From Trichodesmium erythraeum IMS101 (GTDB taxonomy: Bacteria > Cyanobacteriota > Cyanobacteriia > Cyanobacteriales > Microcoleaceae): DNA of 32,000 nucleotides. The DNA is taken from assembly GCF_000014265.1 (NCBI RefSeq), contig NC_008312.1:2610001-2642000 (forward strand), written 5' to 3'. Below the pieces are notes generated by a model. It was given only the letters and a program-made list of their open reading frames with translations, was not told the DNA's origin and ran no database searches. The position numbers and the translations under genes were made by a program. Of the stretch, positions 8,562-31,221 are shown piece by piece. How positions within the stretch are numbered: the first letter of the stretch is position 1; each line of letters begins with the position of its first letter.

Positions 8562-8664
8562 AATAATAAAATTGGGAAAAACTATCTTTAGACTATTATT
8601 CTTTCTATGAATTGCATTACTTCTATTTTAAACATTTAACTATTTCTAAAAATTTACTATAATT

Positions 8665-14875: not shown

Positions 14876-15889
14876 ATGGGGAATATTTCAGATTTAGAAG
14901 CAAATATATCACAAATGCAGCAGTTACTAAACGCTGCACAAAATGATATCCAAAAGAAAACTTTTGAAGAAATTATTAATAGATTATCTCAGGAATTAGA
15001 AAAGGAAAAGTCTAAATTAAATTATTCTAAAGTCAAGACTATAGAAGTAGATAAACCTTTAGAAGGAAAGGTGAAGAAAAAAATCATTCAACTGGGAAAA
15101 CATGAAAGTAAAAAAAATCAAAATTTAAAGCTTAAATGTGACTCTAAAATTGAAGAAAAATCACAGCTTGAAACAGAAGAAATATTATACAATAATGAGG
15201 AGGAAAGTCTACCTCCAAAACAGGATTATCTTTTCCACGGTTTAGGGGTTTTGTATGGTAGAATAGTTAAACGATATGAGGATAATGATAATTATTATAA
15301 TGCAATTATTGATGATAAAACTTATCAGTTAATTATTATTAATCCTAGGGTTAGACATTTCATGAAAGTAGATTATAATCCAGAAAAAAATAGATATTTA
15401 ACTGTTTATCCTAATATAGTACATTATCCTCAACCTAGAGGTGGGAGGAAGGAGCCGAAAGTTAGTTTTACTATTATTGCTGCTAATGATTTCCCTACCT
15501 TAGATCTAGAACCTAATGAGTTTAGATTATTTGGATTATGGCAGTTTATCGCTGTGTCAAGATGTCCTGTAATAAGTATTCATAGAAATAGGAAAAATGA
15601 TGGAAGCGATCGCGTATCAGTTATCAAGGAAAGGTTTAAGAATAATGATAAATTACATAAGAATTTAACTAGGGCTAATCATGTTCCTTTATTATGGAGA
15701 GACTCTCCTGTTAAACCTTTTAAGTTTAATCCTAGATTTGATAAGGATAAACAAGGCGATCGCTACTTTTGCAAAATAAAGGCTAAATTTCTGGCATATA
15801 GAGGTGTTTGGGGTTTCCAAGAATTACTTGTAGAACCTACTCTTGATATTCCCAAATTTTATAAGCCTATTAAAATAGCTTTCTCTTAA
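14876..15889 (+). CDS. Hypothetical protein with a Lys/Glu-rich coiled-coil-like N-terminus and an unrecognised C-terminal domain
   Basis: This is a long uninterrupted ORF in an otherwise stop-rich AT-rich region. I recognise no family motif. Confidence 0.55.
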   Translation: MGNISDLEANISQMQQLLNAAQNDIQKKTFEEIINRLSQELEKEKSKLNYSKVKTIEVDKPLEGKVKKKIIQLGKHESKKNQNLKLKCDSKIEEKSQLETEEILYNNEEESLPPKQDYLFHGLGVLYGRIVKRYEDNDNYYNAIIDDKTYQLIIINPRVRHFMKVDYNPEKNRYLTVYPNIVHYPQPRGGRKEPKVSFTIIAANDFPTLDLEPNEFRLFGLWQFIAVSRCPVISIHRNRKNDGSDRVSVIKERFKNNDKLHKNLTRANHVPLLWRDSPVKPFKFNPRFDKDKQGDRYFCKIKAKFLAYRGVWGFQELLVEPTLDIPKFYKPIKIAFS

Positions 15890-16199
15890 AATTAAAGGGG
15901 CAAATATTACAAAGACTCCTCAAAAGTTGACAGCTAGAGATTAAAAGTCTATTAGTAATATCTGACTAAGTTTTAGAGTGTAGCTATGCCAATTATAAAT
16001 AATTAAAAAGTTCTCTTAACAAAGAACAGTTATGTTTATTCTTAACTGACTATTAGGACTAACTCATTTGTTAAGTTTTAGTAGGTTTGCTGTTAGAAAA
16101 CAAAAATAAAAAATGATTGAAGTCAAAGGTAATAGAGAAAAACCAGGATAAAAATTAATGTCTTTAGTAGTAAGCCACTATCAATTTGTTAATTTTTAA

Positions 16200-16262
16200 C
16201 CTAAGGCCTAAAACCTAAAACTTAAAGTCTAACACCCAAAACCTAATACCTAAAACGCAAGA
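16200..16262. repeat. Short inverted-orientation copy of the heptamer repeat family (C-rich strand on plus)
   Basis: CCTAAAACCTAAAACTTAAAGTCTAACACCCAAAACCTAATACCTAAAAC is the reverse complement of the GGTTTTAGG / GGTGTTAG units in the main array. Confidence 0.8.
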
Positions 16263-16278
16263 GATAGCTTCCAAAAAA

Positions 16279-16460
16279 TTCAGATCATCTATTTGAGAAA
16301 TATCCGATAATAGCCTGACATATTTATCAGCAAATTTGAGTTTTCATCCTATTTCAATTGCTAATAATAATGTCTGTTGAATTTGAACGTTTTTTTTGGA
16401 CATCTTCAGAATCTTTGTGGGATATCTCAGCATTCTTTTGGGATATCTCCAGACTTTTTT
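16279..16460 (+). repeat. Left copy of a dispersed repeat of about 140-180 bp that flanks the Uma2 remnant
   Basis: TTCAGATCATCTATTTGAGAAATATCCGATAATAGCCTGACATATT...GGGATATCTCCAGAC is about 75-80 percent identical by eye to 16979-17117. It has an internal duplication of GGGATATCTC. Confidence 0.7.
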
Positions 16461-16589
16461 TCTCCTGCTATTTCATCTCCTTTTTTAATTACATTTCCCG
16501 GCTTATCCCAGCAACCCAACTATTTACCATTTAGATTTTTAAAGAGATTGTCCCATAGGGTTAATCCTAGATTAATATGGGCCAACTCA

Positions 16590-16930
16590 GTATTTTTTTT
16601 ATTTATTTTGTGTCTACTTATAAAATACCACAAAGCCGAAATATTTGCAAGACATTTTGACTAAATTTTTTAATTGGTTATAGACAACATAATAAGAGGC
16701 CCGTAACTTTCTATAGTCTATTAATTTACTTCCTAATTCATTGCCTGGAGTGGGAGAAACTATTTCAATGACTAAGTCTGGTGGTTTGCCAAATTTCCAG
16801 AATAAATAAGAACGAATATTGCCTTTGGGCTATTCTTGAGTGCCAATAATATTTAAGCTGAAAAATACATCTGGGACTATTGCTGAGTCTCTTATATTGG
16901 AGAATAAACCTAATATAGTTTTCGTAATTT
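16590..16930 (-). pseudogene. Uma2-family (DUF820) endonuclease remnant with an in-frame stop
   Basis: Hand translation gives DSAIVPDVFFSLNIIGTQE*PKGNIRSYLFWKFGKPPDLVIEIVSPTPGNELGSKLIDYRKLRASYYVVYN. This carries the Uma2 signature PDv...P.lviEivSp...D...K...Y. Confidence 0.55.
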
Positions 16931-16978
16931 GTCTTTTGAAGAAATATGGGGAATTTGAGAAGCGATCGCCTCCAACTG

Positions 16979-17117
16979 TTTCAGATCATCTACTTGGGAA
17001 ATATCAGATAATAGCCCGACATATTCATCACCACACTAGAATTTCAATCCCATTTCAACTACTAACAATAATGCCTGTTTAATTTGAGTTTCTTTTTGGG
17101 ATATCTCCAGATTTTTT
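16979..17117 (+). repeat. Right copy of the dispersed repeat; it runs directly into the heptamer array
   Basis: TTCAGATCATCTACTTGGGAAATATCAGATAATAGCCCGACATATT...GGGATATCTCCAGATTTTTTGAGG. Its 3' end resembles the array punctuation ATTTTTTGAGG. Confidence 0.7.
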
Positions 17118-20100
17118 GAGGTTTTAGGTTTGAAGTTTTAAGTCTCAATTTTTTGAGGTTTTAGGTTTGAAGTTTGAAGTTTGAGGTCTCAATTTTTTTA
17201 GGTTTGAAGTTTGAGGTCTCAATTTTTTGAGGTTTGAGGTTTTAGGTTTTAGGTTTGAAGTTTGAGGTCTCATTTTTTTGAGGTTTTAGTTTTAGGTTTG
17301 AAGTTTTACGTCTCAATTTTTTGAGGTGTTAGGTGTTAGGTGTTAGGTTTTAGGTTTTAGGTTTGAAGTTTTAAGTCTCAATTTTTTGAGGTTTTAGGTT
17401 TTAGGCGTTAGGCGTTAGTTTTTAAGTTTGAGGTCTCAATTTTTTGAGGTTTTAGGTTTTAGGTGTTAGTTTTAGGTTTGAAGTTTTACGTCTCAATTTT
17501 TTGAGGTGTTAGTTTTAGGTTTGAAGTTTTAAGTCTCATTTTTTTGAGGTTTTAGGTGTTAGGTGTTAGGTGTTAGGTTTGAAGTTTGAGGTCTCAATTT
17601 TTTGAGGTGTTAGGTTTTAAGTTTTAAGTTTGAGGTCTCAATTTTTTGAGGTTTTAAGTTTTAAGTTTGAGGTCTCAATTTTTTAAGGTTTTACGTTTTA
17701 AGCTTGAGGTCTCAAGGTTTGAGGTTTTAAGTTTTAAGTCTCATTTTTTTGAGGTTTTAGGTTTGAAGTTTGAAGTTTGAGGTCTCATTTTTTTGAGGTT
17801 TTAGGTTTTAGGTTTGAGGTTTGAGGTTTGAAGTTTGAGGTCTCATTTTTTTGAGGTTTTAGTTTTAGGTTTTAAGTTTTACATCTAAATTTTTTGAGGT
17901 TTTAGTTTTAGGTTTGAAGTTTGAGGTCTCAATTTTTTGAGGTTTGAGGTTTGAGGTTTGAGGTTTTAGGTTTGAAGTTTTAAGTCTCAATTTTTTGAGG
18001 TTTGAGGTTTGAAGTTTGAAGTTTTAAGTCTCAATTTTTTGAGGTGTTAGGTTTTAAGTTTGAGGTTTGAGGTCTCAATTTTTTGAGGCTTTAGGTTTGA
18101 AGTTTTAAGTCTCAATTTTTTGAGGTTTTAGTTTTAGGTTTGAAGTTTTAGGTTTGAAGTTTGAGGTCTCATTTTTTTGAGGTGTTAGGTTTTAAGTTTG
18201 AAGTTTGAGGTCTCAATTTTTTGAGGTTTTAGGTTTGAAGTTTGAGGTCTCATTTTTTTGAGGTGTTAGGTTTTAATTTTGAAGTTTTAAGTCTCAATTT
18301 TTTGAGGCTTTAGGTTTGAAGTTTTAAGTCTCAATTTTTTGAGGTTTTAGGTGTTAGGTTTGAGGTTTGAGGTTTGAAGTTTGAGGTCTCATTTTTTTGA
18401 GGTTTTAGTTTTAGGTTTGAAGTTTGAGGTCTCAATTTTTTGAGGTTTTAGTTTTAGGTTTGAAGTTTTAAGTCTCAATTTTTTGAGGTTTTAGGTTTGA
18501 AGTTTGAGGTCTCAATTTTTTGAGGTTTGAGGTTTGAAGTTTGAGGTCTCATTTTTTTGAGGTTTTAGTTTTAGGTTTGAAGTTTTAAGTCTCAATTTTT
18601 TGAGGTTTGAGGTTTGAAGTTTGAAGTTTGAGGTCTCATTTTTTTGAGGTTTGAAGTTTGAAGTTTTAAGTCTCAATTTTTTGAGGCTTTAGGTTTGAAG
18701 TTTTAAGTCTCAATTTTTTGAGGTTTTAGGTGTTAGGTTTGAGGTTTGAGGTTTGAAGTTTGAGGTCTCATTTTTTTGAGGTTTTAGTTTTAGGTTTTAA
18801 GTTTTACATCTCAATTTTTTGAGGTTTTAGTTTTAGGTTTGAAGTTTGAGGTCTCATTTTTTTGAGGTTTGAGGTTTGAGGTTTGAGGTTTTAGGTTTGA
18901 AGTTTTAAGTCTCAATTTTTTGAGGTTTTAGGTTTGAAGTTTGAAGTTTTAAGTCTCAATTTTTTGAGGTGTTAGGTTTGAAGTTTGAGGTTTGAGGTCT
19001 CAATTTTTTGAGGCTTTAGGTTTGAAGTTTTAAGTCTCAATTTTTTCAGGTTTTAGGTGTTAGGTTTGAGGTTTTAGGTTTGAAGTTTGAGGTCTCATTT
19101 TTTTGAGGTTTTAGTTTTAGGTTTGAAGTTTTAAGTCTCAATTTTTTGAGGTGTTAGGTTTGAAGTTTGAGGTTTGAGGTCTCAATTTTTTGAGGTTTTA
19201 GGTTTGAAGTTTTAAGTCTCAATTTTTTCAGGTTTTAGGTGTTAGGTTTGAGGTTTGAGGTTTGAAGTTTGAGGTCTCATTTTTTTGAGGTTTTAGTTTT
19301 AGGTTTGAAGTTTTAAGTCTCAATTTTTTGAGGTTTTAGTTTTAGGTTTGAAGTTTTAAGTCTCAATTTTTTGAGGTTTTAGGTTTGAAGTTTGAGGTCT
19401 CAATTTTTTGAGGTTTTAGTTTTAGGTTTGAAGTTTTAGGTTTGAAGTTTTAAGTCTCAATTTTTTGAGGTCTCATTTTTTTGAGGTTTTAGGTTTGAAG
19501 TTTGAGGTCTCAATTTTTTGAGGTTTTAGTTTTAGGTTTTAAGTTTTACATCTCAATTTTTTGAGGTTTTAGTTTTAGGTTTCAAGTTTGAGGTCTCAAT
19601 TTTTTGAGGTTTTAAGTTTTAAGTTTGAGGTCTCAATTTTTTGAGGTTTTAGGTTTTAAGTTTGAGGTCTCAATTTTTTGATGTTTGAGTTTTAGGTTTG
19701 AAGTTTTAAGTCTCAATTTTTTGAGGTTTTAGGTGTTAGGTTTTAGGTTTTAGGTTTTAAGTTTGAGGTCTCATTTTTTTGAGGTTTTACGTTTTAAGCT
19801 TGAGGTTTTAGGTTTGAAGTTTGAGGTCTCATTTTTTTGAGGTTTTACGTTTTAAGCTTGAGGTCTCAAGGTTTGAGGTTTTAAGTTTTAAGTCTCATTT
19901 TTTTGAGGTTTTAGGTTTGAAGTTTGAAGTTTGAGGTCTCATTTTTTTGAGGTTTGAAGTTTGAAGTTTGAGGTCTCATTTTTTTGAGGTTTTAGTTTTA
20001 GGTTTTAAGTTTTACATCTCAATTTTTTGAGGTTTTAGTTTTAGGTTTGAAGTTTGAGGTCTCAATTTTTTGAGGTTTGAGGTTTGAGGTTTGAGGTTTT

Positions 20101-21480
20101 AGGTTTTAGGTTTGAAGTTTTAAGTCTCAATTTTTTGAGGTTTTAGGTTTGAAGTTTGAAGTTTGAGGTCTCAATTTTTTGAGGCTTTAGGTTTGAAGTT
20201 TTAAGTCTCATTTTTTTGAGGTTTTAGTTTGAGGTTTGAGGTTTTAGGTTTGAAGTTTGAGGTCTCATTTTTTTGAGGTTTTAGTTTGAGGTTTGAAGTT
20301 TGAGGTCTCATTTTTTTGAGGTTTTAGTTTGAGGTTTGAAGTTTGAGGTCTCATTTTTTTGAGGTTTGAGGTTTGAAGTTTGAAGTTTTAAGTCTCAATT
20401 TTTTGAGGTTTGAAGTTTGAAGTTTGAGGTCTCATTTTTTTGAGGTTTTAGTTTGAGGTTTGAGGTTTTAGGTTTGAAGTTTGAGGTCTCATTTTTTTGA
20501 GGTTTTAGGTTTTAGGTGTTAGTTTTAGGTTTGAAGTTTGAGGTCTCATTTTTTTGAGGTTTTAGGTTTGAAGTTTGAAGTTTGAGGTCTCATTTTTTTG
20601 AGGTTTGAAGTTTGAAGTTTGAGGTTTTAGGTTTGAAGTTTGAGGTCTCATTTTTTTGAGGTTTTAGGTTTGAGGTTTGAAGTTTTAAGTCTCATTTTTT
20701 TGAGGTTTTAGGTTTGAAGTTTGAAGTTTGAGGTCTCATTTTTTTGAGGTTTTAGGTTTGAAGTTTGAGGTCTCATTTTTTTGAGGTTTTAGTTTTAGGT
20801 TTGAGGTTTTAGGTTTGAAGTTTGAGGTCTCATTTTTTTGAGGTGTTAGTTTTAGGTGTTAGGTTTTAGGTTTGAAGTTTGAGGTCTCATTTTTTTGAGG
20901 TTTTAGGTTTTAGGTTTTAAGTTTTAAGTCTCATTTTTTTGAGGTTTTAGGTTTGAAGTTTGAAGTTTGAGGTCTCATTTTTTTGAGGTTTGAAGTTTGA
21001 AGTTTGAGGTCTCATTTTTTTGAGGTTTTAGTTTTAGGTTTTAAGTTTGAGGTATCAATTTTTTGAGGTTTTAGTTTTAGGTTTGAAGTTTGAGGTCTCA
21101 ATTTTTTGAGGTTTGAAGTTTGAAGTTTTAAGTCTCAATTTTTTGAGGTTTTACGTTTGAAGTTTGAAGTTTTAAGTCTCAATTTTTTGAGGTTTTACGT
21201 TTTAAGCTTTAAGTTTGAGGTCTCATTTTTTTGAGGTGTTAGTTTTAGGTGTTAGGTTTGAGGTTTTAAGTTTGAGGTCTCAATTTTTTGAGGTTTTAAG
21301 TTTTAAGTTTGAGGTCTCAATTTTTTGAGGTTTTAGGTTTGAAGTTTTAGGTGTTAGTTTTGAAGTTTGAGGTCTCAATTTTTTGAGGTTTTAGGTGTTA
21401 GGTTTTAGGTGTTAGTTTTGAAGTTTGAGGTATCAATTTTTTGAGGTTTTAGGTGTTAGGTTTGAAGTTTGAGGTCTCAG
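17110..21480 (+). repeat. Hierarchical tandem array of 4.37 kb. Runs of 7-nt units (TTTTAGG, TTTGAAG, TTTGAGG, TGTTAGG, TTTTAAG) are punctuated by a conserved element TCTCA(A/T)TTTTTTGAGG
   Basis: My hand count finds about 97 punctuation elements, an average module of about 45 bp with usually 3-7 heptamers. The plus strand is almost C-free outside TCTCA. The supplied track shows no ORF of 60 aa or more in any frame between 17083 and 21487. Confidence 0.97.
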
Positions 21481-21553
21481 GTGTCAAGTGTTATTTTTTA
21501 ATTGTCATATGTTATCTATTGGGCCATGTTTTCTCATTTTCCCAAAAAATTTC

Positions 21554-21572
21554 GACTCGCCAAAGGCGAGAC
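21554..21572 (-). promoter_or_regulatory. GC-rich hairpin followed by a T-run downstream of VR2; either a DGR target-site hairpin/cruciform or an intrinsic terminator
   Basis: The sense strand reads GTCTCGCC-TTT-GGCGAGTC then GAAATTTTTTGGG. The stem is 6 bp perfect, or 8 bp with one mismatch. The copy at 24356-24374 is nearly identical, differing only in the loop. Confidence 0.6.
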
Positions 21573-21604
21573 TAAATAGGGCAAAAGGGCAAAAGGGCAA
21601 AGGG

Positions 21605-22522
21605 CTATTCAGGAGTCCTGGGGGGGAAACTCACAAGACGAAAACCAACAAAGTCGTTGACCGCCTCGACCGAGAAATAGTAGCCGCGGAACGCAGAGCG
21701 ACACCACCAAGGAAAGTCGTACCAGGAGCCGCCCCGTAATCTTTTTGTAGTATATTTTGTAGTATTTTGATTACTTGATACCCATGGACTACCATCATTA
21801 GGTGCGCCCTCGTAATTATCATGCGAGTCATCTTCGCACCATTCCCAGACATTCCCGTGCATATCATATAATCCAAAAAGATTAGCAACTTTGAAGTAAC
21901 CAACTGGAGTGGTTTGTTCTCTATATTCTCCTTTTGGGCCTCTGCCGTAAGAGCCAGACGATTTTTTTTCCCCATCATCCTTTCCACGATAGTTAGCGAG
22001 GTCTGTGGTAATAGTTTCCCCAAAATGAAAAGGCGTAGTTGTTCCTGCACGACAAGCATATTCCCATTGTGCTTCACTGGGTAGCTGATAGTTTCTTTCT
22101 GTCTTCTGACTTAACCGGGCACAAAACTCTTGAGCATCTAGCCAAGAAACTTTCTCAACTGGGCGAGTCCAACGATTATATTTTTCATAGTCATCTTTAA
22201 AATATGAAGGGTCAGGCTTAAGGTCACGTTCAATTTTTTCTGTAGTTTCAACAACAGCTTTCCACTGGCCTTGAGTAATGGGATAACGCCCCATAAAAAA
22301 TTCTGGTACTGTAACTTCATGTTGTGGGCGTTCAGAATGAGTCGAATCTAGCTCATTTTCTGGAGCACCCATAATAAACTTGCCTGCTGGTATCTTAACC
22401 ATAGCCAGTTCAACATTATTGCCCAGGTCTTCGGTATAGTATTCAGCTTGTTCTTTTTTCTTACGAATAGTAATTCTTACCATGGATCTATATATATATG
22501 AAGTCGGGCAACAGTTCAGCAT
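21605..22522 (-). CDS. Stand-alone FGE-sulfatase (SUMF1 / C-type-lectin-fold) domain protein; DGR target 2
   Basis: The sequence reads MVKIPAGKFIMGAPENE...RPQHEVTVPEFFMGRYPITQGQW...VSWLDAQEFCARLS...LPSEAQWEYACRAGTTTPF...GLYDMHGNVWEWCED...LRGGSW...CRSAFR...GFRLV. The likely start is the ATG at 22483 (MVRITIRKKK). The C-terminal 38 aa are encoded by VR2. Confidence 0.88.
   Translation of the reverse strand: MLNCCPTSYIYRSMVRITIRKKKEQAEYYTEDLGNNVELAMVKIPAGKFIMGAPENELDSTHSERPQHEVTVPEFFMGRYPITQGQWKAVVETTEKIERDLKPDPSYFKDDYEKYNRWTRPVEKVSWLDAQEFCARLSQKTERNYQLPSEAQWEYACRAGTTTPFHFGETITTDLANYRGKDDGEKKSSGSYGRGPKGEYREQTTPVGYFKVANLFGLYDMHGNVWEWCEDDSHDNYEGAPNDGSPWVSSNQNTTKYTTKRLRGGSWYDFPWWCRSAFRGYYFSVEAVNDFVGFRLVSFPPRTPE
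21611..21732 (-). other. DGR variable repeat 2 (VR2), including the IMH at its 3' end
   Basis: Hand alignment to TR 22642-22763 finds 18 mismatches within 22651-22763, and all are at TR adenines (T on the plus strand). Confidence 0.9.
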
Positions 22523-22641
22523 TGCTTACTGGGCCGCCCAACTCAATTTGATTTTCGGATGCCGTTACCAACATCGCCGGAACAGGTCTGGACTCTTCTT
22601 TGGCACGCCCGACATATTCCCATATGCCAGTTCTGGCACAG

Positions 22642-22763
22642 AAGAGTGCTGGGGGGGAAACTCACAAGACGAAAACCAATATTGTTGTTGTCCGCCTCGT
22701 CCGAGTTATAGTTGTTGCGGTTCGCAGAGCGACACCTCCTAGGATAGTTGTTCCAGGAGCCGC
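22642..22763 (-). other. DGR template repeat (TR), non-coding and transcribed as the RT template
   Basis: It is homologous to both VRs. Conceptual translation is Asn-rich (NSGSWNNYPRRCRSANRNNYNSDEADNNNIGFRLVSFPP), with AAY codons wherever the VRs vary. It is not preceded by the rest of an FGE domain. Confidence 0.9.
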
Positions 22764-22879
22764 TGTTTGCCTGCCCCACATTTAGTATAGTTCAAATTGA
22801 TCAAATTTAACGATTAAATGTTCCCTGTCCGGAGGTCTTGCCGGAAATAGATTTACTTTTACCTTGGTGAATTTCTCAT

Positions 22880-23944
22880 TTAACCCTGGGAACGGGAAAA
22901 GCCATAGGATGCAAAAATAGATTGGCGTAATTTATAGGTATCTCCGTGGGACAAGTGGGCTTCCCAACTTTGCATTCGTTCTTTCAATTTTTCTAAGGAC
23001 AGAGTACCGTTTTGATAATCTTTCTGCATTTGCTTTAGTCGCTTTCGCCCTCGCCTGAGGTTGTCATTGCGGACTCGAATTCTCTCTGGAAATACTCGAA
23101 AACCTACAAAGTTTGCTCCGTGGCGGGTTTCAAATATTTGAGTTTTAATGGGATGAATTTTTAAACGTAGAGCAGTAAGGTTTTGTTCTATTTTTTGTCT
23201 AGCTTGAGTTAAAGTTTCTCGGTGGTCGCTAAAAAGTGCAAAGTCATCAACGTATCGTAAGTATTTTTTGATTTGCAATTTCTCTTTGACAAAATGATCG
23301 AGGCTATCCAAGAAAAAGTTAGCTAAAAATTGACTGGTTAGGTTGCCTATGGGTAGACCTTTTCGCCGGAGTACGGGAGTGGTCGGGTTATCTCCTGGAA
23401 AATATTCTAGCACAGGTTCTTGAGGGTTACTACCATCAATAATTGTATCGATTAACCATAATGTGTTTTGGTATTTAGTTTTCGGGCGGTTCTTGGTTTT
23501 GAGAATTTCTAGGTCAATACTGGGAAAATATTTCTGAATGTCGCATTGCAGAATATATTTGCTGGAACGAGAAAAGTTGATAAAACGTTGCAGGGCTCGG
23601 TGAGAACTGTAGTCTATACGGTTAGCATAGGTATGGTGGATAAAATAATGTTCTACTAGGGGGACAATGATGTTACATAGAGGGTGGTGAACGACGCGAT
23701 CGCGATAAGGTGCGGCAGAAATTAACGGGGGCTTGGGGTCATATATTCTAAAAGTTTTGTAAGCTCCGGGAGAATAGGTTTTATCTCGCAGTTGGGCTGG
23801 TAGTTTGAATATGTTTGTTTCTAAGTTTTAGTTAAATTCTGGGATGTTGTCTCGAAGTCGCTTGCCTTTTTGAGCGTAACGAGCGGCTAAAAACAAGTTT
23901 TTCCAGGCTACAATTTGGGGCCAAAGGTTTCCATGACGTTTCAT
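22880..23944 (-). pseudogene. DGR-type reverse transcriptase; 354 codons are open apart from one in-frame TAA at codon 39
   Basis: Hand translation from the ATG at 23944 gives [45 protein letters not shown]...[13 protein letters not shown]...[11 protein letters not shown]...LPIGNLTSQ...YVDDFALF. The TAA is at 23830..23828. The (I/L)GxxxSQ motif is DGR-specific rather than group II-like. Confidence 0.85.
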
Positions 23945-23968: not shown

Positions 23969-24310
23969 TTAGGGTTCAGATAAGTTTTTAGTCCAACTAC
24001 CTAAGTCAGATCCTATTCCATTGATCTGTATATTTATATATTTGTAGCGATCGCTGGAAATTAATTCAAAATCTGAGAGTAGGCGAGTTTGGTGCCGAAT
24101 AACATCAAGTTTAATGTTCAGGTTTTGCAAAATCTCTAATTTTTCACTGGTGCTAAAACGGGCACGAATCAGATTTTCCAGCAAATCATAAAGATGATTA
24201 ATTATCCGCGTTCCTAAACCAAGACGATAATTCCTTGGCAAACGATTTAATACTGGGACATACCATTTAATAAAATCATAGGTCTTTTGAATAATTGGTA
24301 ATTCATTCAT
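23969..24310 (-). CDS. avd: Avd-type accessory variability determinant (four-helix-bundle, 23S rRNA IVS protein family)
   Basis: The sequence reads MNELPIIQKTYDFIKWYVPVLNRLPRNYRLGLGTRIINHLYDLLENLIRARF... (113 aa). It sits between the target and the RT. The longer ORF reaching 24394 would run through the conserved VR 3' flank, so I place the start at 24310. Confidence 0.8.
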   Translation of the reverse strand: MNELPIIQKTYDFIKWYVPVLNRLPRNYRLGLGTRIINHLYDLLENLIRARFSTSEKLEILQNLNIKLDVIRHQTRLLSDFELISSDRYKYINIQINGIGSDLGSWTKNLSEP

Positions 24311-24355
24311 ATTTTTATATTTGGGCCATATTTTCTCAATTTCAAAAAAAATTTC

Positions 24356-24374
24356 GACTCGCCAGAGGCGAGAC
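24356..24374 (-). promoter_or_regulatory. GC-rich hairpin followed by a T-run downstream of VR1; either a DGR target-site hairpin/cruciform or an intrinsic terminator
   Basis: The sense strand reads GTCTCGCC-TCT-GGCGAGTC then GAAATTTTTTTT. It lies about 40 nt 3' of the IMH, in the 96-nt gap between the target stop (24407) and the avd start (24310). Confidence 0.6.
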
Positions 24375-24406
24375 TGAAAAGGGCAAAAGGGCAAAAGAGC
24401 AAAGGG

Positions 24407-27040
24407 CTATTCAAGAGTCCTGGGGGGGAAACTCACAAGACGAAAACCAAAATTGATGATGACCGCCCCGTCCGAGCTAAAGTCGTAGCGGTACGCAGAG
24501 CGACACCACCAAGGATAGTTGAGCCAGGAGCCGCCCCGTAATACTTTTGTAGAATATTTTGTAGTATTTTGATTACCTGATAGCCATGGACTACCATCAT
24601 TGGGTGCACCCTCATAATTATCATGCATATCATCTTCGCACCATTCGTAAACATTCCCGTGCATATCGTATAAGCCAAAAGGATTGGCCACTTCAAAACT
24701 ACCAACAGGAGTTGTTTCTTCTCTATACTTGCCTTTTGTCCCTTGGCCATAAGTATAATTGCCATCATAATTGGCCAGGTCTGTAGTAATAGTTTCCCCA
24801 AAATGAAAGGGTGTAGTTGTTCCTGCACGACAAGCATATTCCCATTGAGCTTCACTGGGAAGCCCATAGTTTCTGCCTGTATATTTGGATAGTCTGGCAC
24901 AAAACTCTACTGCATCATACCAAGACACTCTTTCTACAGGTCGATCATTTCCTTTAAAATATGAAGGGTTAGACTTAAGGTCACGTTCAATTTTTGGCAC
25001 ATTATCAACAATGGCTTTCCACTGACCTTGAGTAACAGGGTAGCGACCCATGAGAAAAGCTGAAATATTCACCTGATGTTGAGGACCTTCACGACTTTCT
25101 CGTTCCAATTCATCTTCTGGGGAGCCCATAAGAAACTTTCCTGGGGGAATTTCCACCATTTCAAGTTTAATTCCATTCCCCAAGTCTTCCACAATACCTG
25201 TAACTTGTCGGCGTTGTTTTTTGATAGCCCATCGATATCCAAATAATCTCAATAATTCTGAACGTCTTTTTTCCAACCTTGCTAGATCAAACTCAAAGGT
25301 TACAGTTTCCTGCACTTCAATGAAAGCAACGTCAAAAGTATCAGTTTGAATTTGAGGTTCTGATCTGACTTCTGACTCGGGAGTTTCAAAAATGGGAGGA
25401 ACAGAAACAGGTCGAATTTTCTGGGCAACCTTCTCAGCAAACTCAGCATATTCTCCACCTAAATTTTCCAATACATCAACAGCAACTTGAGCAAAAGGTA
25501 AGACTTGCTCCCGGTCTTCCTCCTCATATTGAGGCAATAAGGTCAACAAAGCTCGAAAACTACGAATAGGTCGGTCAATTTTTTCAGCGATGTAACGAGA
25601 AACAGCATCCAGAACAGCCGTAGTTTCGTTGCGCCCCATTGCCTGGTTCAACTCTTTTCGGACACCAGGAAGAAATTCATAAGTTGGTTGATCATCCTTA
25701 GAGTCAGTTGGAGCAAGCAAACCTCCCATATAAACTTCCGCCACATGAACGGTGGTAGCTTCCTTTAAGAGAGTTTTGCGAATTAAGTTAACCACAGACA
25801 AATTCACCGGAGCCGCCGCCATCATCCCTGCGAGTCGTTGAGCAGTAATAGAAGTTGTTGCCAGAAATTTTCTCACCCTAGTTGTAGGTGAAATTTCTTT
25901 TTTAGGGGTGGGTAGCTCTGGTGGAGAGTCTTCTTGTTTTTGGCAAAATTGCTTTTCAACAAAAGATAAATCAAATAAAAATATAGGTACTCGTGAGTTA
26001 CTAGCTCCGGACACTATCCGACACCAACTTTTCAAAAGTTCAGGTTCAGGCAGAATGACAGGTAAAACCAAAGCATTCTTCCAGTTTATAGGTATCCAGG
26101 GAGGTAAATTTTCCAAAACCAACCGGGGGTTAGGAACTCCTGGTGCAACAGCAGTACCAAAAAATTTACTTCCCACTCCCAGTTGAGTGCTATCCCAAAG
26201 ATATTCAGGGAATAACTGTAATATTGTTGTGGGGTTTTTTTCTGACCAAACTTTTAACCAGTGGTGAACAGTACCATTTTGCCAAATTTTAGAAGTACAG
26301 TCACTGACAAAAATAACTACTCCCCGCTGGTTAGAATGAATTAATTCTCGATGACTATGTTGACGTTGCTTTGGTTTACCGCTGTTATGTCGCCGGACTA
26401 ATTTTAATTTTTTAGTATTTGAACTGAGCAAACTCCAGACTCGGACATTTTTAAATGCTCCCTGAGTTTCCAAGACTTCTTGCATTTCATTCACCGTCTC
26501 TCTCCAAATAAAAGCGGAACTCGACTCTTCTACCACCAGTTCTAAGTCAAGCCAGCGTTCGGGTTCTGGTTTAGTAACGGGCAACCAGATATCCTGCTCG
26601 GCAATAACATTAACAGTTTCTTCTTCGTCTAGTGTTTTTCTGGAGAGAGAGGGAACTTTCCGCATCAGAGGACGCAAAGCACGACCTAACTCCAGTACAT
26701 TCTGGAGAGCTGGAGCCGCGGGTGTTTGGAATGGCAAACCTTTAACTGGAGGTTTTTCGGGGGTTTGGTCTATTGATTCCTCCGTGATCACTGATACTTG
26801 AGGTTCTCTCTCGGTAACAGGTTGAGGATCACTGTCTTCAAAAATTATCGGCAGTTGTTCCGGTTGCTGTTCATATTTTGGCTTCGGCTTTTGTGGAGTC
26901 TTCACCGTACCCATTTGTAAAGCCAACCAAATACTATCAGCAATATTTTCATCGCTGAGTTCCAGACCTTCTAAAATTCCGGTTCGAGCGAGTCGGTCTA
27001 TCAAAAGTTTAATGGTGTGCTCAAAACTGGAACTACTCAT
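24407..27040 (-). CDS. Multidomain sensor protein and DGR target 1. Order: N-terminal helical domain, Pro/Glu-rich linker, vWA-like domain, middle region, C-terminal FGE-sulfatase (C-type-lectin-fold) domain
   Basis: The vWA-like part reads LELVVEESSSAF (an ExSxS MIDAS-like motif) ... GVVIFVSDCTSKIWQNGTVHHWLKVWSEKNPTTILQLFPEYLW. The FGE part reads MVEIPPGKFLMGSPEDE...GPQHQVNISAFLMGRYPVTQGQW...SWYDAVEFCARLS...LPSEAQWEYACRAGTTTPF...GLYDMHGNVYEWCED...LRGGSW...CRSAYR...GFRLV. Its start lies 4 nt after the stop of the upstream gene. Confidence 0.88.
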   Translation of the reverse strand: MSSSSFEHTIKLLIDRLARTGILEGLELSDENIADSIWLALQMGTVKTPQKPKPKYEQQPEQLPIIFEDSDPQPVTEREPQVSVITEESIDQTPEKPPVKGLPFQTPAAPALQNVLELGRALRPLMRKVPSLSRKTLDEEETVNVIAEQDIWLPVTKPEPERWLDLELVVEESSSAFIWRETVNEMQEVLETQGAFKNVRVWSLLSSNTKKLKLVRRHNSGKPKQRQHSHRELIHSNQRGVVIFVSDCTSKIWQNGTVHHWLKVWSEKNPTTILQLFPEYLWDSTQLGVGSKFFGTAVAPGVPNPRLVLENLPPWIPINWKNALVLPVILPEPELLKSWCRIVSGASNSRVPIFLFDLSFVEKQFCQKQEDSPPELPTPKKEISPTTRVRKFLATTSITAQRLAGMMAAAPVNLSVVNLIRKTLLKEATTVHVAEVYMGGLLAPTDSKDDQPTYEFLPGVRKELNQAMGRNETTAVLDAVSRYIAEKIDRPIRSFRALLTLLPQYEEEDREQVLPFAQVAVDVLENLGGEYAEFAEKVAQKIRPVSVPPIFETPESEVRSEPQIQTDTFDVAFIEVQETVTFEFDLARLEKRRSELLRLFGYRWAIKKQRRQVTGIVEDLGNGIKLEMVEIPPGKFLMGSPEDELERESREGPQHQVNISAFLMGRYPVTQGQWKAIVDNVPKIERDLKSNPSYFKGNDRPVERVSWYDAVEFCARLSKYTGRNYGLPSEAQWEYACRAGTTTPFHFGETITTDLANYDGNYTYGQGTKGKYREETTPVGSFEVANPFGLYDMHGNVYEWCEDDMHDNYEGAPNDGSPWLSGNQNTTKYSTKVLRGGSWLNYPWWCRSAYRYDFSSDGAVIINFGFRLVSFPPRTLE
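24413..24534 (-). other. DGR variable repeat 1 (VR1), including the IMH at its 3' end
   Basis: Hand alignment to TR finds 14 mismatches within the segment matching TR 22651-22763, and all are at TR adenines. Confidence 0.9.
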
Positions 27041-27043: not shown

Positions 27044-28096
27044 TTAATCTTCAGCCTCAGCTCTTCCTAAGTCTTGTAAAAGTTGTTGTACTAATTCGTC
27101 GTCAAAAAAACTTTTACCTTCGGTAGCAGGGATACGACCCTTTGTCACCATAAAAATTGCATTCAATAACTGGTCAGTTGCCAGAGTTTTCTCATCCTGG
27201 AGGTCAATAAAATTTTTAATTAGTGTTTGAATTTTTTCTTGTTCAGCAGTATTTTGATTAAAATGAGCAATAACTATTTTGGTCAATTCTTCTTGAGTTG
27301 GAGATTTCATCCTTAAAGGCAAACACCGCCGTAAAAAAGGTGCCGGAAAATCTCTTTCTCCGTTACTAGTCATCACCACCAGAGGAAAAGCGGTGCAAGT
27401 TATCCGCCCATTCTCAATTTCCGCCTCCATCTGAGAACCTGTCTCGGCTTCAGTTTCATCACTGTAAGCAGTACGAACCGTTACCTTGTTTACCTCTTTT
27501 TTTATTCTGACCAACTCTGGAATTTCAAACAACCCCTCTTCGAGAATAGCCAGAAGGTTATTAGGTAAGTCAATATCGCTTTTATCAATTTCATCTATCA
27601 GAAGAACCCGGGGATATTTTGAAGGCAACAAAGCAGTTCCCAAAGGACCGAGAGTTATGTATTTTTCAATTTGTTGTATCTGTTCTCGATATTGTTCTGA
27701 GGAAAAAGTCTGATTATTTAGTCTTTCCTGTTGTTTAACCTCCTGCAACCGACCAATAGCATCATAACTATATAGTCCCTCTTTCAAAATAGTGCGGGTA
27801 GTAACTGGCCAGTAAAGCACTTCTCCCAGTTTTAGTTGTCTAGCCACAGCATAAGCGAGGGAAGACTTACCCGTTCCTGGTTTACCAGTGACAAGTAGAG
27901 GTCGCCTCAAATATAATGCAGCGTTAACCATTTTGACTTCATCAGAACGTGCCTGAAAAGTTTCACCACGTCGCTTCAAGCGACTTTCCCCAGGTCTGTT
28001 TTCTTGACCAAAAGGTCGCCAACTAGGAGGAGGTGGCAAATTTTGAATACCATCATGAGGTTCTGTGTTTTCCTTAAAAATTTCCCAGTTATTCAT
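27044..28096 (-). CDS. MoxR-like AAA+ ATPase
   Basis: Walker A is LLVTGKPGTGKSSLAYAVA and Walker B is RVLLIDEIDKSD, followed by LPNNLLAILEEG. The start overlaps the upstream stop (ATGA at 28093-28096). Confidence 0.88.
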   Translation of the reverse strand: MNNWEIFKENTEPHDGIQNLPPPPSWRPFGQENRPGESRLKRRGETFQARSDEVKMVNAALYLRRPLLVTGKPGTGKSSLAYAVARQLKLGEVLYWPVTTRTILKEGLYSYDAIGRLQEVKQQERLNNQTFSSEQYREQIQQIEKYITLGPLGTALLPSKYPRVLLIDEIDKSDIDLPNNLLAILEEGLFEIPELVRIKKEVNKVTVRTAYSDETEAETGSQMEAEIENGRITCTAFPLVVMTSNGERDFPAPFLRRCLPLRMKSPTQEELTKIVIAHFNQNTAEQEKIQTLIKNFIDLQDEKTLATDQLLNAIFMVTKGRIPATEGKSFFDDELVQQLLQDLGRAEAED

Positions 28097-30024: not shown

Positions 30025-30086
30025 TAAACCTTATCCACTTCCAACTTTTTAAACTCTATAGTTATCCATAGCCAACTTTGCCGTTA

Positions 30087-30437
30087 CTAACCCTCCGTCT
30101 TATTCCATTTCAGAGTAATTTCATAGTTAACCTCCGCGCTACCTGATGCAATAACAGCTCCCAGTTCACCACTCATTTTTATCCCAAACTTCACCTCTAC
30201 AGCATCAGCCGGTTGATTTAAGTCCTGAACCTTTTTGATAATTGCGTTGGCCACCGGCTTAATACTAGAAAGTGCCTTTCCCAGTGTTTGTTTAGCCTGT
30301 TGAGCGACCTCATCCCCAATGCCAATTAACTCCTCATCTTCATCTTCATTGCTACTGACTGGTAGCTTTTCATCCACTTCCACATAGACAAAAGACTCAT
30401 CATCATCATCTAACTGAAACTTAACTAATTTTGTCAC
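30087..30437 (-). CDS. Small Trypco2-like (trypsin co-occurring) protein
   Basis: The sequence reads VTKLVKFQLDDDDESFVYVEVDE...AVEVKFGIKMSGELGAVIASGSAEVNYEITLKW, which fits the family pattern. A GTG at 30437 is preceded by GGAGG (30444-30448) with a 6-nt spacer, so I prefer it over the ATG at 30503 in the ORF track. Confidence 0.7.
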   Translation of the reverse strand: MTKLVKFQLDDDDESFVYVEVDEKLPVSSNEDEDEELIGIGDEVAQQAKQTLGKALSSIKPVANAIIKKVQDLNQPADAVEVKFGIKMSGELGAVIASGSAEVNYEITLKWNKTEG

Positions 30438-30796
30438 TTGTATCCTCCCGTCAGTCAATTTTTTTATATTTCCATATATTCTATAACAACTCGGCAGCCA
30501 CATTGAGATGTCATTTCATTTATTCTTATGTTGGTGTTAAAACTGCCCGTAAAGATAAGAGTAAAAACTAAAAAATATCCTGCCATCCCATTCAAAACAA
30601 ATGGAAAAATTACTGCTATATTCGTAGCTTAATTAACTAGGATATTATAAATATTATCAACCATCAACTAGAAAGAAAAATTAGCCTCAACTGTTTACCC
30701 CTCCCCCATTCCTCCATTCCCCTACTTCCCATCCTGAGAGAGACTAGGGGAACAGAACCTAATCAAAGTGCCAAATTGAAAATTTTTCGAGCTAAA

Positions 30797-30877
30797 TAGT
30801 ATACATCCTTAATATATTAGGGATAGTATACATCCTTAATATATTAGCGATAGTATACATCCTTAATATATTAGCGA
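30797..30877. repeat. 27-bp direct repeat in 3 copies
   Basis: TAGTATACATCCTTAATATATTAG(G/C)GA starts at 30797, 30824 and 30851. The last copy overlaps the stop of ORF 30871..31221. Confidence 0.9.
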
Positions 30878-31221
30878 TCGCATATCATCAAAATTCCAGC
30901 CTCAGAACCTTGAGGAGAAATGAACCTATTACCTTCTAACGTTGTTTCAGCAATAATCTCACCAAGACCAGTTTGTCTTCTAATTAATTGAGAAGCAAAC
31001 CTGCCAATATTACAATCAATTTCCACCACCATATAGACCTGTTTCATTCCATCATCTGCCTCCTGATCGTATTGCTTTAATACTTCTGCCCTCCACAAAT
31101 TGTTGCCCAGGCCTTCAATAGTGTTCATATTTATTAACGTTGTTGCCTTAGTATTATAACCTACAGGCTCCCAATCTAAAATCCCTTGTGTAATAATAAC
31201 ACTAGCCAAAAATTCAAACAT
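30871..31221 (-). CDS. Hypothetical protein (116 aa)
   Basis: This is an uninterrupted ORF with no family motif that I recognise. Confidence 0.45.
   Translation of the reverse strand: MFEFLASVIITQGILDWEPVGYNTKATTLINMNTIEGLGNNLWRAEVLKQYDQEADDGMKQVYMVVEIDCNIGRFASQLIRRQTGLGEIIAETTLEGNRFISPQGSEAGILMICDR

Follow-up and report, generated by a model that had tools for sequence, protein, structure and literature searches.

Introduction

The closest described relatives of the array reported here are the STRR (short tandemly repeated repetitive) heptanucleotides known from filamentous cyanobacteria, which are tandem 7-nt units that occupy intergenic DNA (PMC2670836). The present array, found in a 32,000-nt window of the Trichodesmium erythraeum IMS101 chromosome (NC_008312.1, positions 2,610,001 to 2,642,000), likewise consists of tandem 7-nt units in intergenic DNA, and these units also appear as short dispersed runs in Trichodesmium. 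However, none of them corresponds to a classical STRR consensus, of which there are three, reportedly CCCCAGT, TTGGTCA and CAACAGT, which Mazel et al. are said to have described in 1990. Moreover, classical STRR arrays measure some tens of bp up to a couple of hundred, while that of Trichodesmium spans 4.4 kb, and it alone is punctuated by a 16-nt element every 3-7 units and displays higher-order blocks.

Eukaryotic satellites and minisatellites with higher-order repeats share with the array its periodicities nested within one another (7, 37-58 and 200-900 bp), its local homogenization and its degenerate edges, as well as, probably, an evolution by slippage and unequal exchange, but the array differs from a satellite in occupying a single locus of a bacterial chromosome, in its size of only 4.4 kb and in implying no centromere or heterochromatin role. 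CRISPR arrays (LTRR in cyanobacteria) also alternate a partly palindromic short repeat with variable segments, in modules of similar size to those seen here (37-66 bp); however, the repeat of the array is only 16 nt long, its 'spacers' are low-complexity heptamers that are often reused, and neither cas genes nor a leader were found in the window. Furthermore, about 40% of the T. erythraeum genome is non-coding and other long tandem arrays are known in it, among them one of more than 6 kb that yields the most abundant RNA of the organism (7 units of 736-973 bp, a strong promoter in each, 45% of primary reads) (PMC4143802). That array is likewise long, non-coding, tandem and near a gene 3′ end in the same genome, but its units are promoter-bearing and of ~900 bp, while those of the heptamer array measure 7-58 bp and show no promoter signal.

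Modules and units of the array

The array (4371 bp; Table 1) is built of modules in which a 16-nt punctuation, TCTCA(A/T)TTTTTTGAGG, is followed by 2-7 heptamer units, with a single module lacking units. A total of 94 copies of TCTCAWTTTTTTGAGG with at most one mismatch were found, every one on the + strand and none outside the array, while shuffled sequences were expected to contain 0.01. Exact copies numbered 86 (A-variant, 48; T-variant, 38). The 94 leave out two further copies inside the array that are truncated (TCTCAAGG), as well as a degenerate copy at its start (17104-17121) and a TCTCA at its end (21475-21479), so the hand count of about 97 modules in the preliminary description was close. 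Tandem Repeats Finder, suggested there for module statistics, returned periods of 7, 37 and 44.

The small unit alphabet described earlier agrees with the 408 units counted, of which TTTGAAG and TTTGAGG (96 each), TTTTAGG (82) and TTTTAAG (55) were the most frequent, followed by TGTTAGG (21), TTTTACG (7), CTTTAGG (5) and TTTTACA (4). Two features had been overlooked, namely the 6-nt units TTTTAG (24 copies) and TGTTAG (7 copies), and the position of TTTGAAG, which is the penultimate unit in 77% of modules. As had been noticed, TTTGAGG or TTTTAAG is nearly always the last unit (87 of 93 modules), and the internal order is strict: TTTTAG(G) comes first, TTTGAAG penultimate and TTTGAGG or TTTTAAG last. 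Module lengths such as 37, 43, 44, 57 and 58 bp follow no helical phase, five-unit modules are nearly absent (1/94), and 56 distinct module bodies were present. The + strand is G/T-rich and, outside TCTCA, nearly C-free, as had been noticed (T 50%, G 26%, A 19%, C 5%), with only 28 of its 216 C residues outside TCTCA and a GC skew from +0.56 to +0.72. The claim that the array is ORF-free also held, the longest ORF in six frames having 54 aa.

Table 1. Positions within the window of the array, its internal domains and its flanking features.
Feature	Position	Strand	Description or basis
Heptamer array	17110..21480	+	94 punctuation modules; the G/T-rich strand is +
Left junction	17104..17121	+	TCTCCAGATTTTTTGAGG in flank; matches the punctuation at 16/18 positions with a 2-nt gap; direct reading
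Right junction	21475..21481	+	Terminal truncated punctuation TCTCAGG, then unique sequence
Homogenized domain	20206..21025	+	T-variant TCTCATTTTTTTGAGG in 17/18 punctuations
Segmental duplication, copy 1	17789..18131	+	343 nt, 98.3% vs 18714-19056
Segmental duplication, copy 2	18714..19056	+	Partner of 17789-18131
Segmental duplication	18291..18528	+	238 nt, 98.3% vs 19179-19416
Overlapping duplication	18939..19334	+	214 nt, offset 182, 99.1%
Short heptamer run	16198..16260	-	~8 units of the array's alphabet, opposite orientation; STRR-like ordinary form
Left flank	16250..17103	-	Pseudogene debris; weak Uma2 fragment ~16650-16800
DGR target 2 conserved 3′ cassette	21505..21804	-	87% identical to 24307-24606; outside the array

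Higher-order structure and homogenization

Blocks of several hundred bp had been said to recur, and three duplications of 343, 238 and 214 nt at 98-99% identity were indeed found. In particular, modules containing GAGGCTTTAGG, whose block had been reported at five places, start at 18073, 18292, 18671, 18998 and 20169. The dominance of the T-variant noted for about 20200-21050 was located to the homogenized domain, in which the longest run comprised 13 T-variant punctuations (permutation P about 1e-4), and the punctuation variant was linked with the preceding unit (Fisher P = 0.003). Neighbouring modules were identical in places (20263/20306 and 19275/19318), while module 17927 (three TTTGAGG, then TTTTAGG, TTTGAAG and TTTTAAG) equals module 20060 save for one extra TTTTAGG. 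Singleton modules accounted for 16 of 20 at the edges vs. 24 of 74 in the interior (P = 2e-4).

Junctions, flanks and assembly

The left junction was the same in eight independent short-read contigs and the right one in three others. Assemblies from short reads break at both junctions alike, whether they derive from the culture or from a wild genome of the Great Barrier Reef, and since both junctions are identical across independent assemblies, including the T. erythraeum MAG GCA_018457135.1 from the Great Barrier Reef, the array is real DNA that also occurs in a wild genome; its apparent length in this assembly is 4.4 kb. The length and module order could be partly artefactual, if an array that is shorter or different was mis-assembled. 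The collections contain no assembly that spans the array, each short-read contig ending 30-500 nt inside it; those assemblies also collapse another tandem array of the window (5068-6517), and the contig reaching 494 nt into the array shows 7 differences in its innermost 95 nt. However, the 56 distinct module bodies, the unique variants and the imperfect higher-order blocks are unlike the product of an assembler loop, and the junctions are reproducible in independent data sets, which makes such an artefact unlikely.

The site of the array is little constrained: the gene sets on its two sides converge on it with their 3′ ends, synteny breaks there, and pseudogene debris is adjacent. The left flank contains a duplicated segment with 21-nt repeats, 16300-16470 resembling 17040-17110. 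A 67-aa Uma2 gene was called in L005, one of the eight contigs with the left junction, and an intact Uma2 comes after the homologous gene in L146 and L147. The look-alike TCTCCAGATTTTTTGAGG at the left junction is a possible seed of the punctuation.

Units and punctuation elsewhere

The resemblance to cyanobacterial STRR heptamers that had been pointed out is borne out by shared units: TTTTAGG, TGTTAGG, TTTGAAG and TTTGAGG recur in short runs at 16198-16260, in a counterpart of that run in another Trichodesmium species (L141, 11248-11285; L144, 7432-7469) and in an unrelated metagenome contig (L138). Outside the array, the heptamers of the genus appear only as runs of 4-9 units. A search for the punctuation, as had been recommended, was performed with GTCTCAWTTTTTTGAGGT in three large collections: it returned 47 stretches from 185,579 species genomes, 68 from JGI metagenomes and 2 from IMG/VR, all of them single chance-level matches. 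The punctuation thus appears to be confined to the array, although its uniqueness in the genome is not fully established because the source genome is apparently masked in, or absent from, these collections.

Relation to the neighbouring DGR

DGRs are mutagenic retroelements, and the window is a DGR locus of the T. erythraeum IMS101 type, with its TR at 22642-22763. The cassette of target 2, which contains VR2 (21611-21732), GCCCTTTT repeats and a hairpin with a T-run, begins about 25 nt from the array, correcting the 38 bp given previously. Given this proximity, the array could be imagined either as a DGR accessory that stalls forks or promotes recombination and so aids cDNA homing into VR2, or as a by-product, synthesized from a nick beside the cassette by a reverse transcription that is reiterative in the manner of telomerase. 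Moreover, the G/T-rich strand points 5′ to 3′ toward the cassette, and the 9-nt core of the punctuation occurs once per cassette in the same orientation (21532 and 24334). However, such a match is near chance (~0.6 expected per 9-mer) and the left flank is a better source of the punctuation; in addition, the RT of T. erythraeum is a pseudogene (PMC4143802), a 177-aa RT fragment being found in the window. No array was found at three other VR cassettes, namely VR1 in the window, the target 2 orthologue of Trichodesmium sp. ALOHA_ZT_67 (L145, 91% identical) and a paralogue carried by the T. erythraeum MAG from the Great Barrier Reef (L148). This largely refutes both readings, which are highly improbable; the array is most likely not a component of the DGR, and the juxtaposition is incidental.

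Structural and transcriptional signals

The regular GG-N5-GG spacing proposed earlier is interrupted by AAG units in nearly every module; because of this, only 14 two-tetrad G-quadruplex motifs were found, with no GGG tract, making the suggested potential marginal. The likeness to telomeric repeats (TTTAGGG and TTTTAGGG types) extends to 7-nt G/T-rich units and strand asymmetry, but the array has GG rather than GGG tracts, a mixed alphabet, punctuation and no telomerase, and the analogy was rejected on account of the internal position of the array, which unique DNA flanks at either end. The hairpin suggested for the punctuation is weak (-2.9 kcal/mol as DNA, and -1.1 in the T-variant copies); in 38 of the 94 copies (40%), the T-variant disrupts the closing pair and no compensating change is present.

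These palindromes could nevertheless bind a protein. Plasmid centromeres of the sopC type consist of tandem repeats of ~43 bp that contain an inverted repeat apiece, and heptad iteron arrays are bound by RHH proteins; the array shares with them ~40-bp tandem modules with a short palindrome and heptad sub-repeats. The 94 copies of CTCAA-N4-TTGAG would then serve as operators or resemble a centromere such as sopC of plasmid F, or the G/T-rich strand would be bound by a single-strand-binding protein, for instance the neighbouring tandem-OB-fold protein; in both cases, a protein would be titrated or anchored by the array. Each module carries the 14-bp palindrome within a nearly invariant punctuation, and the nearest intact gene (14876-15889) encodes a 337-aa product with a predicted coiled coil and two-OB-fold domain (pLDDT 78.7) resembling Deinococcus/Thermus SSB (Foldseek E 2e-4 to 1e-3; target-normalized TM 0.47-0.50). 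In another Trichodesmium species, a short TTTTAGG/TGTTAGG run also comes after the homologue of this gene, although the DNA around the run cannot be aligned. On the other hand, the structural match is weak and generic, the gene has homologues in many other filamentous cyanobacteria, and those in Okeania and related genomes had no nearby heptamer runs in the few loci inspected. Furthermore, the array has 94 copies vs. about 10 in sopC, their spacing varies from 37 to 66 bp with no helical phase, the palindrome is degraded in 40% of them, and no ParA, ParB, RHH or HTH genes were found in the 20 ORFs scanned, so there are no partition genes nearby. A binding role is therefore improbable.

It is similarly improbable that the array gives rise to large amounts of repeat RNA acting as a sponge or scaffold, whether this RNA were a G/U-rich one read from the + strand or a C/A-rich one produced by read-through of DGR target 2. 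Such RNA would be analogous to the tandem-repeat ncRNAs that this genome expresses at high levels. At least 40% of active T. erythraeum promoters yield non-coding RNA (PMC4143802), and predicted folding exceeded that of shuffles on both strands (z = -7.1 for the +, mostly through G-U pairs, and z = -6.5 for the -, from small hairpins). However, promoter-like and terminator-like sites in the array were at or below shuffle expectation, with no promoter-like site inside or facing into it beyond chance; the hairpin plus T-run of the cassette sits between target 2 and the array; no Rfam family matched the array; and the published list of top T. erythraeum ncRNAs places none there (PMC4143802). A protein search with the longest spurious ORF gave one weak match.

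Discussion

Overall, the array is probably a compound minisatellite of the T. erythraeum chromosome, or bacterial 'satellite', that is non-coding and specific to this lineage, generated by replication slippage and unequal recombination and probably neutral. Its building blocks would be the STRR-like heptamers of the genus itself (TTTTAGG, TGTTAGG, TTTGAAG, TTTGAGG and TTTTAAG). One heptamer run may have gained the 9-nt core TCTCA(A/T)TTT beside a TTTGAGG unit, probably copied from the flank, resulting in a basic module of ~37 bp, TCTCAATTTTTTGAGG-TTTTAGG-TTTGAAG-TTTGAGG. From there, three scales of change are proposed. Slipped-strand mispairing would add or remove one or two heptamers within modules, since paralogous blocks (17927 vs. 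20060) differ by one unit; whole modules of 37-66 bp would be copied by tandem duplication, because neighbours are sometimes identical; and blocks of 200-350 bp would be shifted by unequal recombination or gene conversion, as argued by the 98-99% identity of the duplicated blocks, the run of 13 T-variants and the linkage between variant and unit. Such block exchange would homogenize the interior while the edges decay.

Both these mutational mechanisms and the neutrality are what we infer for the array, which most likely has no sequence-specific function; the evidence favours neutral satellite DNA, which the preliminary description had named as the alternative refuting its own proposal. As a counterpoint, a short-repeat array of 4.4 kb is very large by the standards of bacterial chromosomes, and persistence in both culture and wild population could mean that the array is maintained. 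The near absence of five-unit modules likewise speaks against the neutral reading. The strict module order and the nearly invariant punctuation are both explained by shared descent, although constraint would explain them too.

Structure of the repeat array

The repeat array extended over 4371 bp of this assembly, unbroken and in a single orientation, and its preliminary description as modules of a 16-nt punctuation followed by a body of short units was borne out with small corrections. A total of 94 matches to the punctuation (TCTCAWTTTTTTGAGG, at most one mismatch) were found, all on the plus strand within the array and none elsewhere in the window, when 0.01 were expected from dinucleotide shuffles. 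Among these, 86 were exact, with A at position 6 in 48 copies (A-variant) and T in 38 (T-variant). Between the punctuations, 408 short units were parsed, the most frequent being TTTGAAG and TTTGAGG (96 copies each), followed by TTTTAGG (82), TTTTAAG (55), TTTTAG (24) and TGTTAGG (21), with rarer variants making up the rest. The heptamers of the alphabet initially proposed were therefore recovered, but the 6-nt unit TTTTAG had been overlooked.

The commonest bodies measured 21, 27 and 28 nt (21 modules each), followed by 42 nt (14) and 41 nt (9), five-unit modules being nearly absent. As whole modules were mostly 37, 43, 44, 57 or 58 bp long, the periods of 7 (~600 copies), 37 and 44 obtained with TRF are explained. 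The polarity of the modules was fixed, since TTTTAG(G) opened 57% of them, TTTGAAG was the penultimate unit in 77%, and the closing unit was TTTGAGG in 62% and TTTTAAG in 31%. Moreover, the three heptamers 5′ of each punctuation were in register in essentially all modules, variation being concentrated directly 3′ of the punctuation. The plus strand was composed of T (50%), G (26%), A (19%) and C (5%), with a GC skew of +0.56 to +0.72 and 188 of its 216 C falling inside TCTCA. A coding repeat protein was ruled out by stops in all frames, the longest ORF on either strand reaching 54 aa.

Other repeated sequences were observed in the window and its surroundings. These were a second non-coding tandem array with no ORF of at least 80 aa, similar in scale to the promoter-bearing ncRNA arrays described for the T. 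erythraeum genome and collapsed to approximately one copy in short-read assemblies (5100 passing to 6225 in contigs L001–L005), two tandem paralogues encoding kinase fusions, a short repeat just beyond the DGR and, past the window end, HIP1-containing repeats.

Features of the window and of related contigs (window coordinates unless a contig is named)
Feature	Position	Strand	Remarks
Second non-coding tandem array	5068-6517		253 bp x 5.7, 97% identity
Ser/Thr protein kinase-GUN4 fusions	7044-10149	-	505 and 494 aa, ~84% DNA identity
337-aa hypothetical gene	14876-15889	+	
Short run of array heptamers	16198-16260	-	240-310 nt 3′ of 337-aa gene
Duplicated flank segment	16300-16470, 17040-17110		
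21-nt repeats	16393-16460		TTTTGGGATATCTTCAGAATC x 3.2
Candidate source of punctuation core	17104-17121		TCTCCAGATTTTTTGAGG
Repeat array	17110-21480	+	
300-nt cassette common to both targets	21505-21804, 24307-24606		
9-nt punctuation core in cassettes	21532-21540, 24334-24342	+	
GCCCTTTT repeats	21575-21604, 24377-24406		
Target 2	21605-22522	-	FGE-sulfatase fold
VR2	21611-21732	-	within target 2
TR	22642-22763	-	
Truncated reverse transcriptase (RT) ORF	22880-23413	-	177-aa RVT_1; split region upstream to ~23960
bAvd	23969-24394	-	
Target 1	24407-27040	-	
VR1	24413-24534	-	within target 1
Three operon-like genes	27044-30503	-	AAA/MoxR-like ATPase (350 aa); trypsin-like protease with VMAP-M1 and VMAP-C (643 aa); Trypco1 protein (138 aa)
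Tandem repeat beyond DGR	30796-30878		27 bp x 3.1, 98% identity
HIP1-containing repeats	L128 4608-5919		82 bp and 497 bp
Short TTTTAGG/TGTTAGG run	L141 11248-11285, L144 7432-7469		another Trichodesmium species
GCCCTTTT repeats in other loci	L145 2102-2131, L148 1884-1905		

Presence of the array in independent assemblies

Exact-protein look-ups on both sides of the array returned ~20 independent short-read contigs (ENA, Logan and NCBI), which were 99.8–100% identical to the window and each of which ended 30–500 nt inside the array. The left junction was found in contigs L001–L008 and the right junction in contigs L128–L130. Contigs L005 and L128 belong to the field genome of Trichodesmium erythraeum GBRTRLIN201 (GCA_018457135.1), so the array exists beyond the IMS101 culture, and both of its junctions are the same there. 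In these collections, no contig crossing the whole array was found, the look-ups with neighbouring proteins giving only contigs that ended inside it, and exact look-ups with the two DGR target proteins, made to find array-spanning contigs, gave no records. Moreover, 56 distinct module bodies were counted and the higher-order blocks were imperfect, unlike what is expected from an assembler loop. The array is real DNA, the exact length and module order given here being those of this assembly. From the right, L128 reached 494 nt into the array, with its outer ~400 nt identical to the window and 7 substitutions in the innermost 95 nt, which may reflect a mis-join or differences between strains.

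Origin and turnover of the array

The array is fairly likely to be a lineage-specific, non-coding compound minisatellite, derived from STRR-like heptamers of Trichodesmium, grown to an unusual 4.4 kb and forming no part of the DGR. Nested periodicities, local clustering of variants, near-identical internal duplications and degenerate edges were all found, as in satellite DNA. At the level of the unit, the paralogous modules at 17927 and 20060 differed by exactly one heptamer, and body lengths changed in 7- or 14-nt steps. At the level of the module, identical copies lay side by side (20263/20306 and 19275/19318). At a larger scale, blocks of 343, 238 and 214 nt were repeated with 98–99% identity at offsets of 925, 888 and 182 bp, respectively, and the module string J-A-x-F-B-x-x-C was repeated 2.15 kb apart. 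Furthermore, T-variants formed a run of 13 (P about 1e−4), and the punctuation variant was linked to the type of the preceding unit (P = 0.003). Unique modules accounted for 16 of the 20 outermost positions compared to 24 of the 74 inner ones (P = 2e−4), and such unique edges around a reused interior are classically seen where unequal exchange homogenises the inner part of an array.

Judging from this pattern, nested duplication at the unit, module and block levels would have built the array. The presence of TTTGAGG on both sides of the punctuation core may provide a substrate for slippage, by which whole punctuations could be gained or lost, and the core itself would have a better candidate source in the left flank (TCTCCAGATTTTTTGAGG) than in the DGR cassettes. 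The size and hierarchy of the array are unusual for a bacterium; the host genome was already known for its abundant non-coding repeats, 40% of the T. erythraeum genome being non-coding (PMC4143802).

Genomic context and adjacency to the DGR

The genes to the left of the array, namely a B12/radical-SAM gene, recF (TIGR00611) and the 337-aa gene, were on the plus strand and those to the right on the minus strand, so the two gene sets converge on the array with their 3′ ends. Between the 337-aa gene and the array, 1.2 kb of debris was found, with a weak Uma2 fragment as the sole Pfam match among the small reading frames (a 67-aa Uma2 gene was called in L005) and with the short heptamer run, oriented opposite to the array. 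In the Okeania-type genomes (loci L146 and L147), the homologue of the 337-aa gene was followed by an intact Uma2 gene, and the IMS101 arrangement is therefore a decayed form of this layout; the Uma2 proteins of both loci gave no alignment with the window remnant, and the loci of 337-aa gene homologues in other species were not syntenic. A segment of this flank was duplicated and 21-nt repeats were observed in it, the array starting exactly past the 17040-17110 copy, at a common CTCCAGA-T6 motif.

To the right, the layout of the window DGR matched exactly the published one of IMS101, in which the RT (Tery_1728/1729) is interrupted by a stop codon and flanked by two VR genes, the TR following closely on its downstream side, with the TR-RNA TSS at 2632789r (PMC4143802); the window is thus the IMS101-type DGR locus. 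Taking this TSS as a reference, the array would be located at roughly 2.627–2.6315 Mb of the IMS101 chromosome. The same split RT (38-aa and 177-aa calls) was observed in the culture-type assemblies L129–L131. Contig L128, from the Great Barrier Reef MAG, had no called RT ORF, and its target 1 was called with 472 aa versus 877 aa.

The preliminary description had the array abutting the DGR, whose cassette begins 25 nt from the array end. No array was found at VR1, which is directly followed by avd; at the 91% identical target 2 orthologue of Trichodesmium sp. ALOHA_ZT_67 (L145), which sits beside its own RT and is followed first by GCCCTTTT repeats and a T-run hairpin and then by unique DNA with a gene for an MFS transporter; or at a paralogous cassette in the Great Barrier Reef T. 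erythraeum genome (L148), likewise followed by unique DNA. The DNA left of target 2 differed between lineages, and this variable neighbourhood makes the site of the array a synteny breakpoint. Each cassette had one copy of the 9-nt punctuation core at a homologous position, and the two forms (TCTCATTTT near VR2, TCTCAATTT near VR1) parallel the variants of the punctuation. Such cassette matches were close to chance (~0.6 expected per 9-mer). Given that other cassettes were without an array, that the core matches were near chance and that the left flank is the likelier source of the core, the adjacency to the DGR is regarded as incidental.

Two further observations concern the DGR itself. In all of the VR-bearing target genes examined, three to four copies of the 8-nt repeat GCCCTTTT directly followed the stop codon and preceded a hairpin and T-run whose sequence was lineage-specific and whose structure was kept; both elements are probably part of a DGR target-recognition or terminator cassette. 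Moreover, the three genes with overlapping stops and starts directly upstream of target 1 resemble a conflict or signalling system of the vWA-MoxR-associated type, with the DGR target coupled to it.

Comparison with known repeat classes and distribution

Filamentous cyanobacteria typically carry STRR sequences, which are 7-bp tandem repeats with unknown function (PMC2670836). The array units were likewise tandem and 7 nt long, in an intergenic location without ORFs and in a filamentous cyanobacterial host, the homologues of the neighbouring proteins being named Trichodesmium, Okeania or Lyngbya. The same heptamer alphabet was dispersed as short runs in the window, in another Trichodesmium species (L141/L144) and in the metagenome contig L138, so the units are STRR-like in behaviour and the likeness initially proposed was confirmed. 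In particular, the L141/L144 run read TTTTAGG TGTTAGG TGTTAGG TGTTAGG TTTTAGG, and in both the window and this other species a heptamer run followed the 337-aa gene at a distance of 240–310 nt, in surroundings that were otherwise unalignable. Contig L138, the only (weak) match in a protein search with the longest spurious array ORF (P0001), had short TTTGAAG/TTTGAGG runs without punctuation. A different heptamer was found in L145 (TCAGTTA x6.7), and none of the handful of loci inspected around 337-aa homologues in Okeania and related genomes, including L146 and L147, had heptamer runs. However, the array units (TTTTAGG, TTTGAAG, TTTGAGG, TGTTAGG and TTTTAAG) fit none of the three STRR consensuses (CCCCAGT for STRR1, TTGGTCA for STRR2 and CAACAGT for STRR3), and a punctuated array of 4.4 kb is itself atypical of this class.

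Scans for the punctuation in the form GTCTCAWTTTTTTGAGGT yielded only lone scattered matches, namely 47 stretches (about chance) in 185,579 species-representative genomes (GTDB), 68 stretches from metagenomes and two matches in IMG/VR, the latter two being terminator-tail-plus-RBS look-alikes in phage contigs (L011 and L012); no sister array was found in any of the three. The hosts of the scattered matches were non-cyanobacterial, except for one Prochlorococcus. The source region itself was not returned by these scans, being presumably masked or absent there, and a second punctuated array in the same genome is likely lacking. It is thus the punctuation, hierarchy and size that set the array apart from the dispersed heptamers. 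The array is of a kind already known and represents a new variant of it, punctuated, hierarchical and 4.4 kb long, and no paper describing it was found in the literature.

Other classes were also considered. CRISPR arrays have repeats of 23–50 nt separated by unique spacers; this class was ruled out by the 16-nt repeat and by bodies that were low-complexity heptamer runs (56 types in 94 modules, many of them reused), and no Cas domains were found in Pfam scans of 20 window ORFs. The palindrome CTCAA-N4-TTGAG in each module is reminiscent of partition centromeres of the sopC, parC or parS-heptad type; no parA/parB-type or RHH centromere-binding genes were found among the ORFs neighbouring the array, which were recF, the radical SAM enzyme, the 337-aa OB-fold-like protein and the DGR genes. 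The telomere-type likeness formerly suggested did not hold, as the array is internal, with unique sequence and genes on both sides and junctions repeated in independent contigs.

Tests for function

No functional signal emerged from the tests on the array. Promoter-like and terminator-like sites in 15800–22900 were at or below shuffle expectation (intrinsic terminators, 5 vs. 5.1 expected, only one of them inside the array), and a terminator or promoter array was ruled out by these counts. No Rfam families were found at E ≤ 1 in 15–24 kb or at the gathering score in the whole window. The punctuation hairpin CTCAA-TTTT-TTGAG reached −2.9 kcal/mol as DNA; the T-variant, in 40% of the copies, loses the closing pair uncompensated (−1.1 kcal/mol), and the hairpin was lengthened to 9 bp (−5.2) only in the five CTTTAGG modules. 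Plus-strand array RNA folded better than shuffles (z = −7.1), with long G-U-rich helices as from any G/U repeat, and the minus strand formed small hairpins only. The G-quadruplex potential that had been attributed to a regular GG-N5-GG spacing proved marginal when computed, as AAG units break the series in almost every module. Neither GGG nor three-tetrad motifs were present in the array, only 14 two-tetrad motifs were found in 4.4 kb, and ViennaRNA with G-quadruplexes enabled predicted none, even in the richest modules.

The neighbouring 337-aa protein, from a family widespread in filamentous cyanobacteria, had no Pfam or NCBIfam match. Its AlphaFold2 model (34-sequence alignment, pLDDT 78.7) showed a coiled coil at the N-terminus, then a disordered linker (residues 51–114) and a confident all-beta C-terminal domain, for which the best PDB matches by Foldseek were the two-OB-fold SSBs of Deinococcus/Thermus and an editosome OB-fold protein (E of 2e−4 to 1e−3, TM of 0.35–0.50 normalised to the target). 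The model thus makes it a candidate single-strand nucleic-acid binder, and an OB-fold protein beside G/T-rich repeats is suggestive, such a pairing being found at eukaryotic telomeres. Against a link, no heptamer runs were seen near the Okeania-type homologues inspected, and the family is widespread. By analogy with telomeres, the array and the short runs might be binding sites for this tandem-OB-fold protein or, alternatively, the 94 palindromes might act as an operator array titrating or anchoring a nucleoid protein in the highly polyploid Trichodesmium erythraeum. Both proposals are considered very improbable. Module lengths (37, 43/44 and 58 bp) had no constant helical phase, which would argue against a cooperative protein array.

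Implications

If the array is a neutral satellite, it would illustrate strikingly how far repeats can expand where the streamlining of a bacterial chromosome is relaxed, adding to the picture of the 40% non-coding genome of Trichodesmium. To our knowledge, hardly any natural arrays of ~100 tandem sites are known from bacteria, and for this reason the array would matter much more if it were transcribed or protein-bound. Moreover, the array is a fixed break point in short-read assemblies adjoining the DGR, and hence the DGR loci of Trichodesmium MAGs will be cut there. Finally, if its length varies, the array could serve as a VNTR-like strain-typing marker for T. erythraeum.
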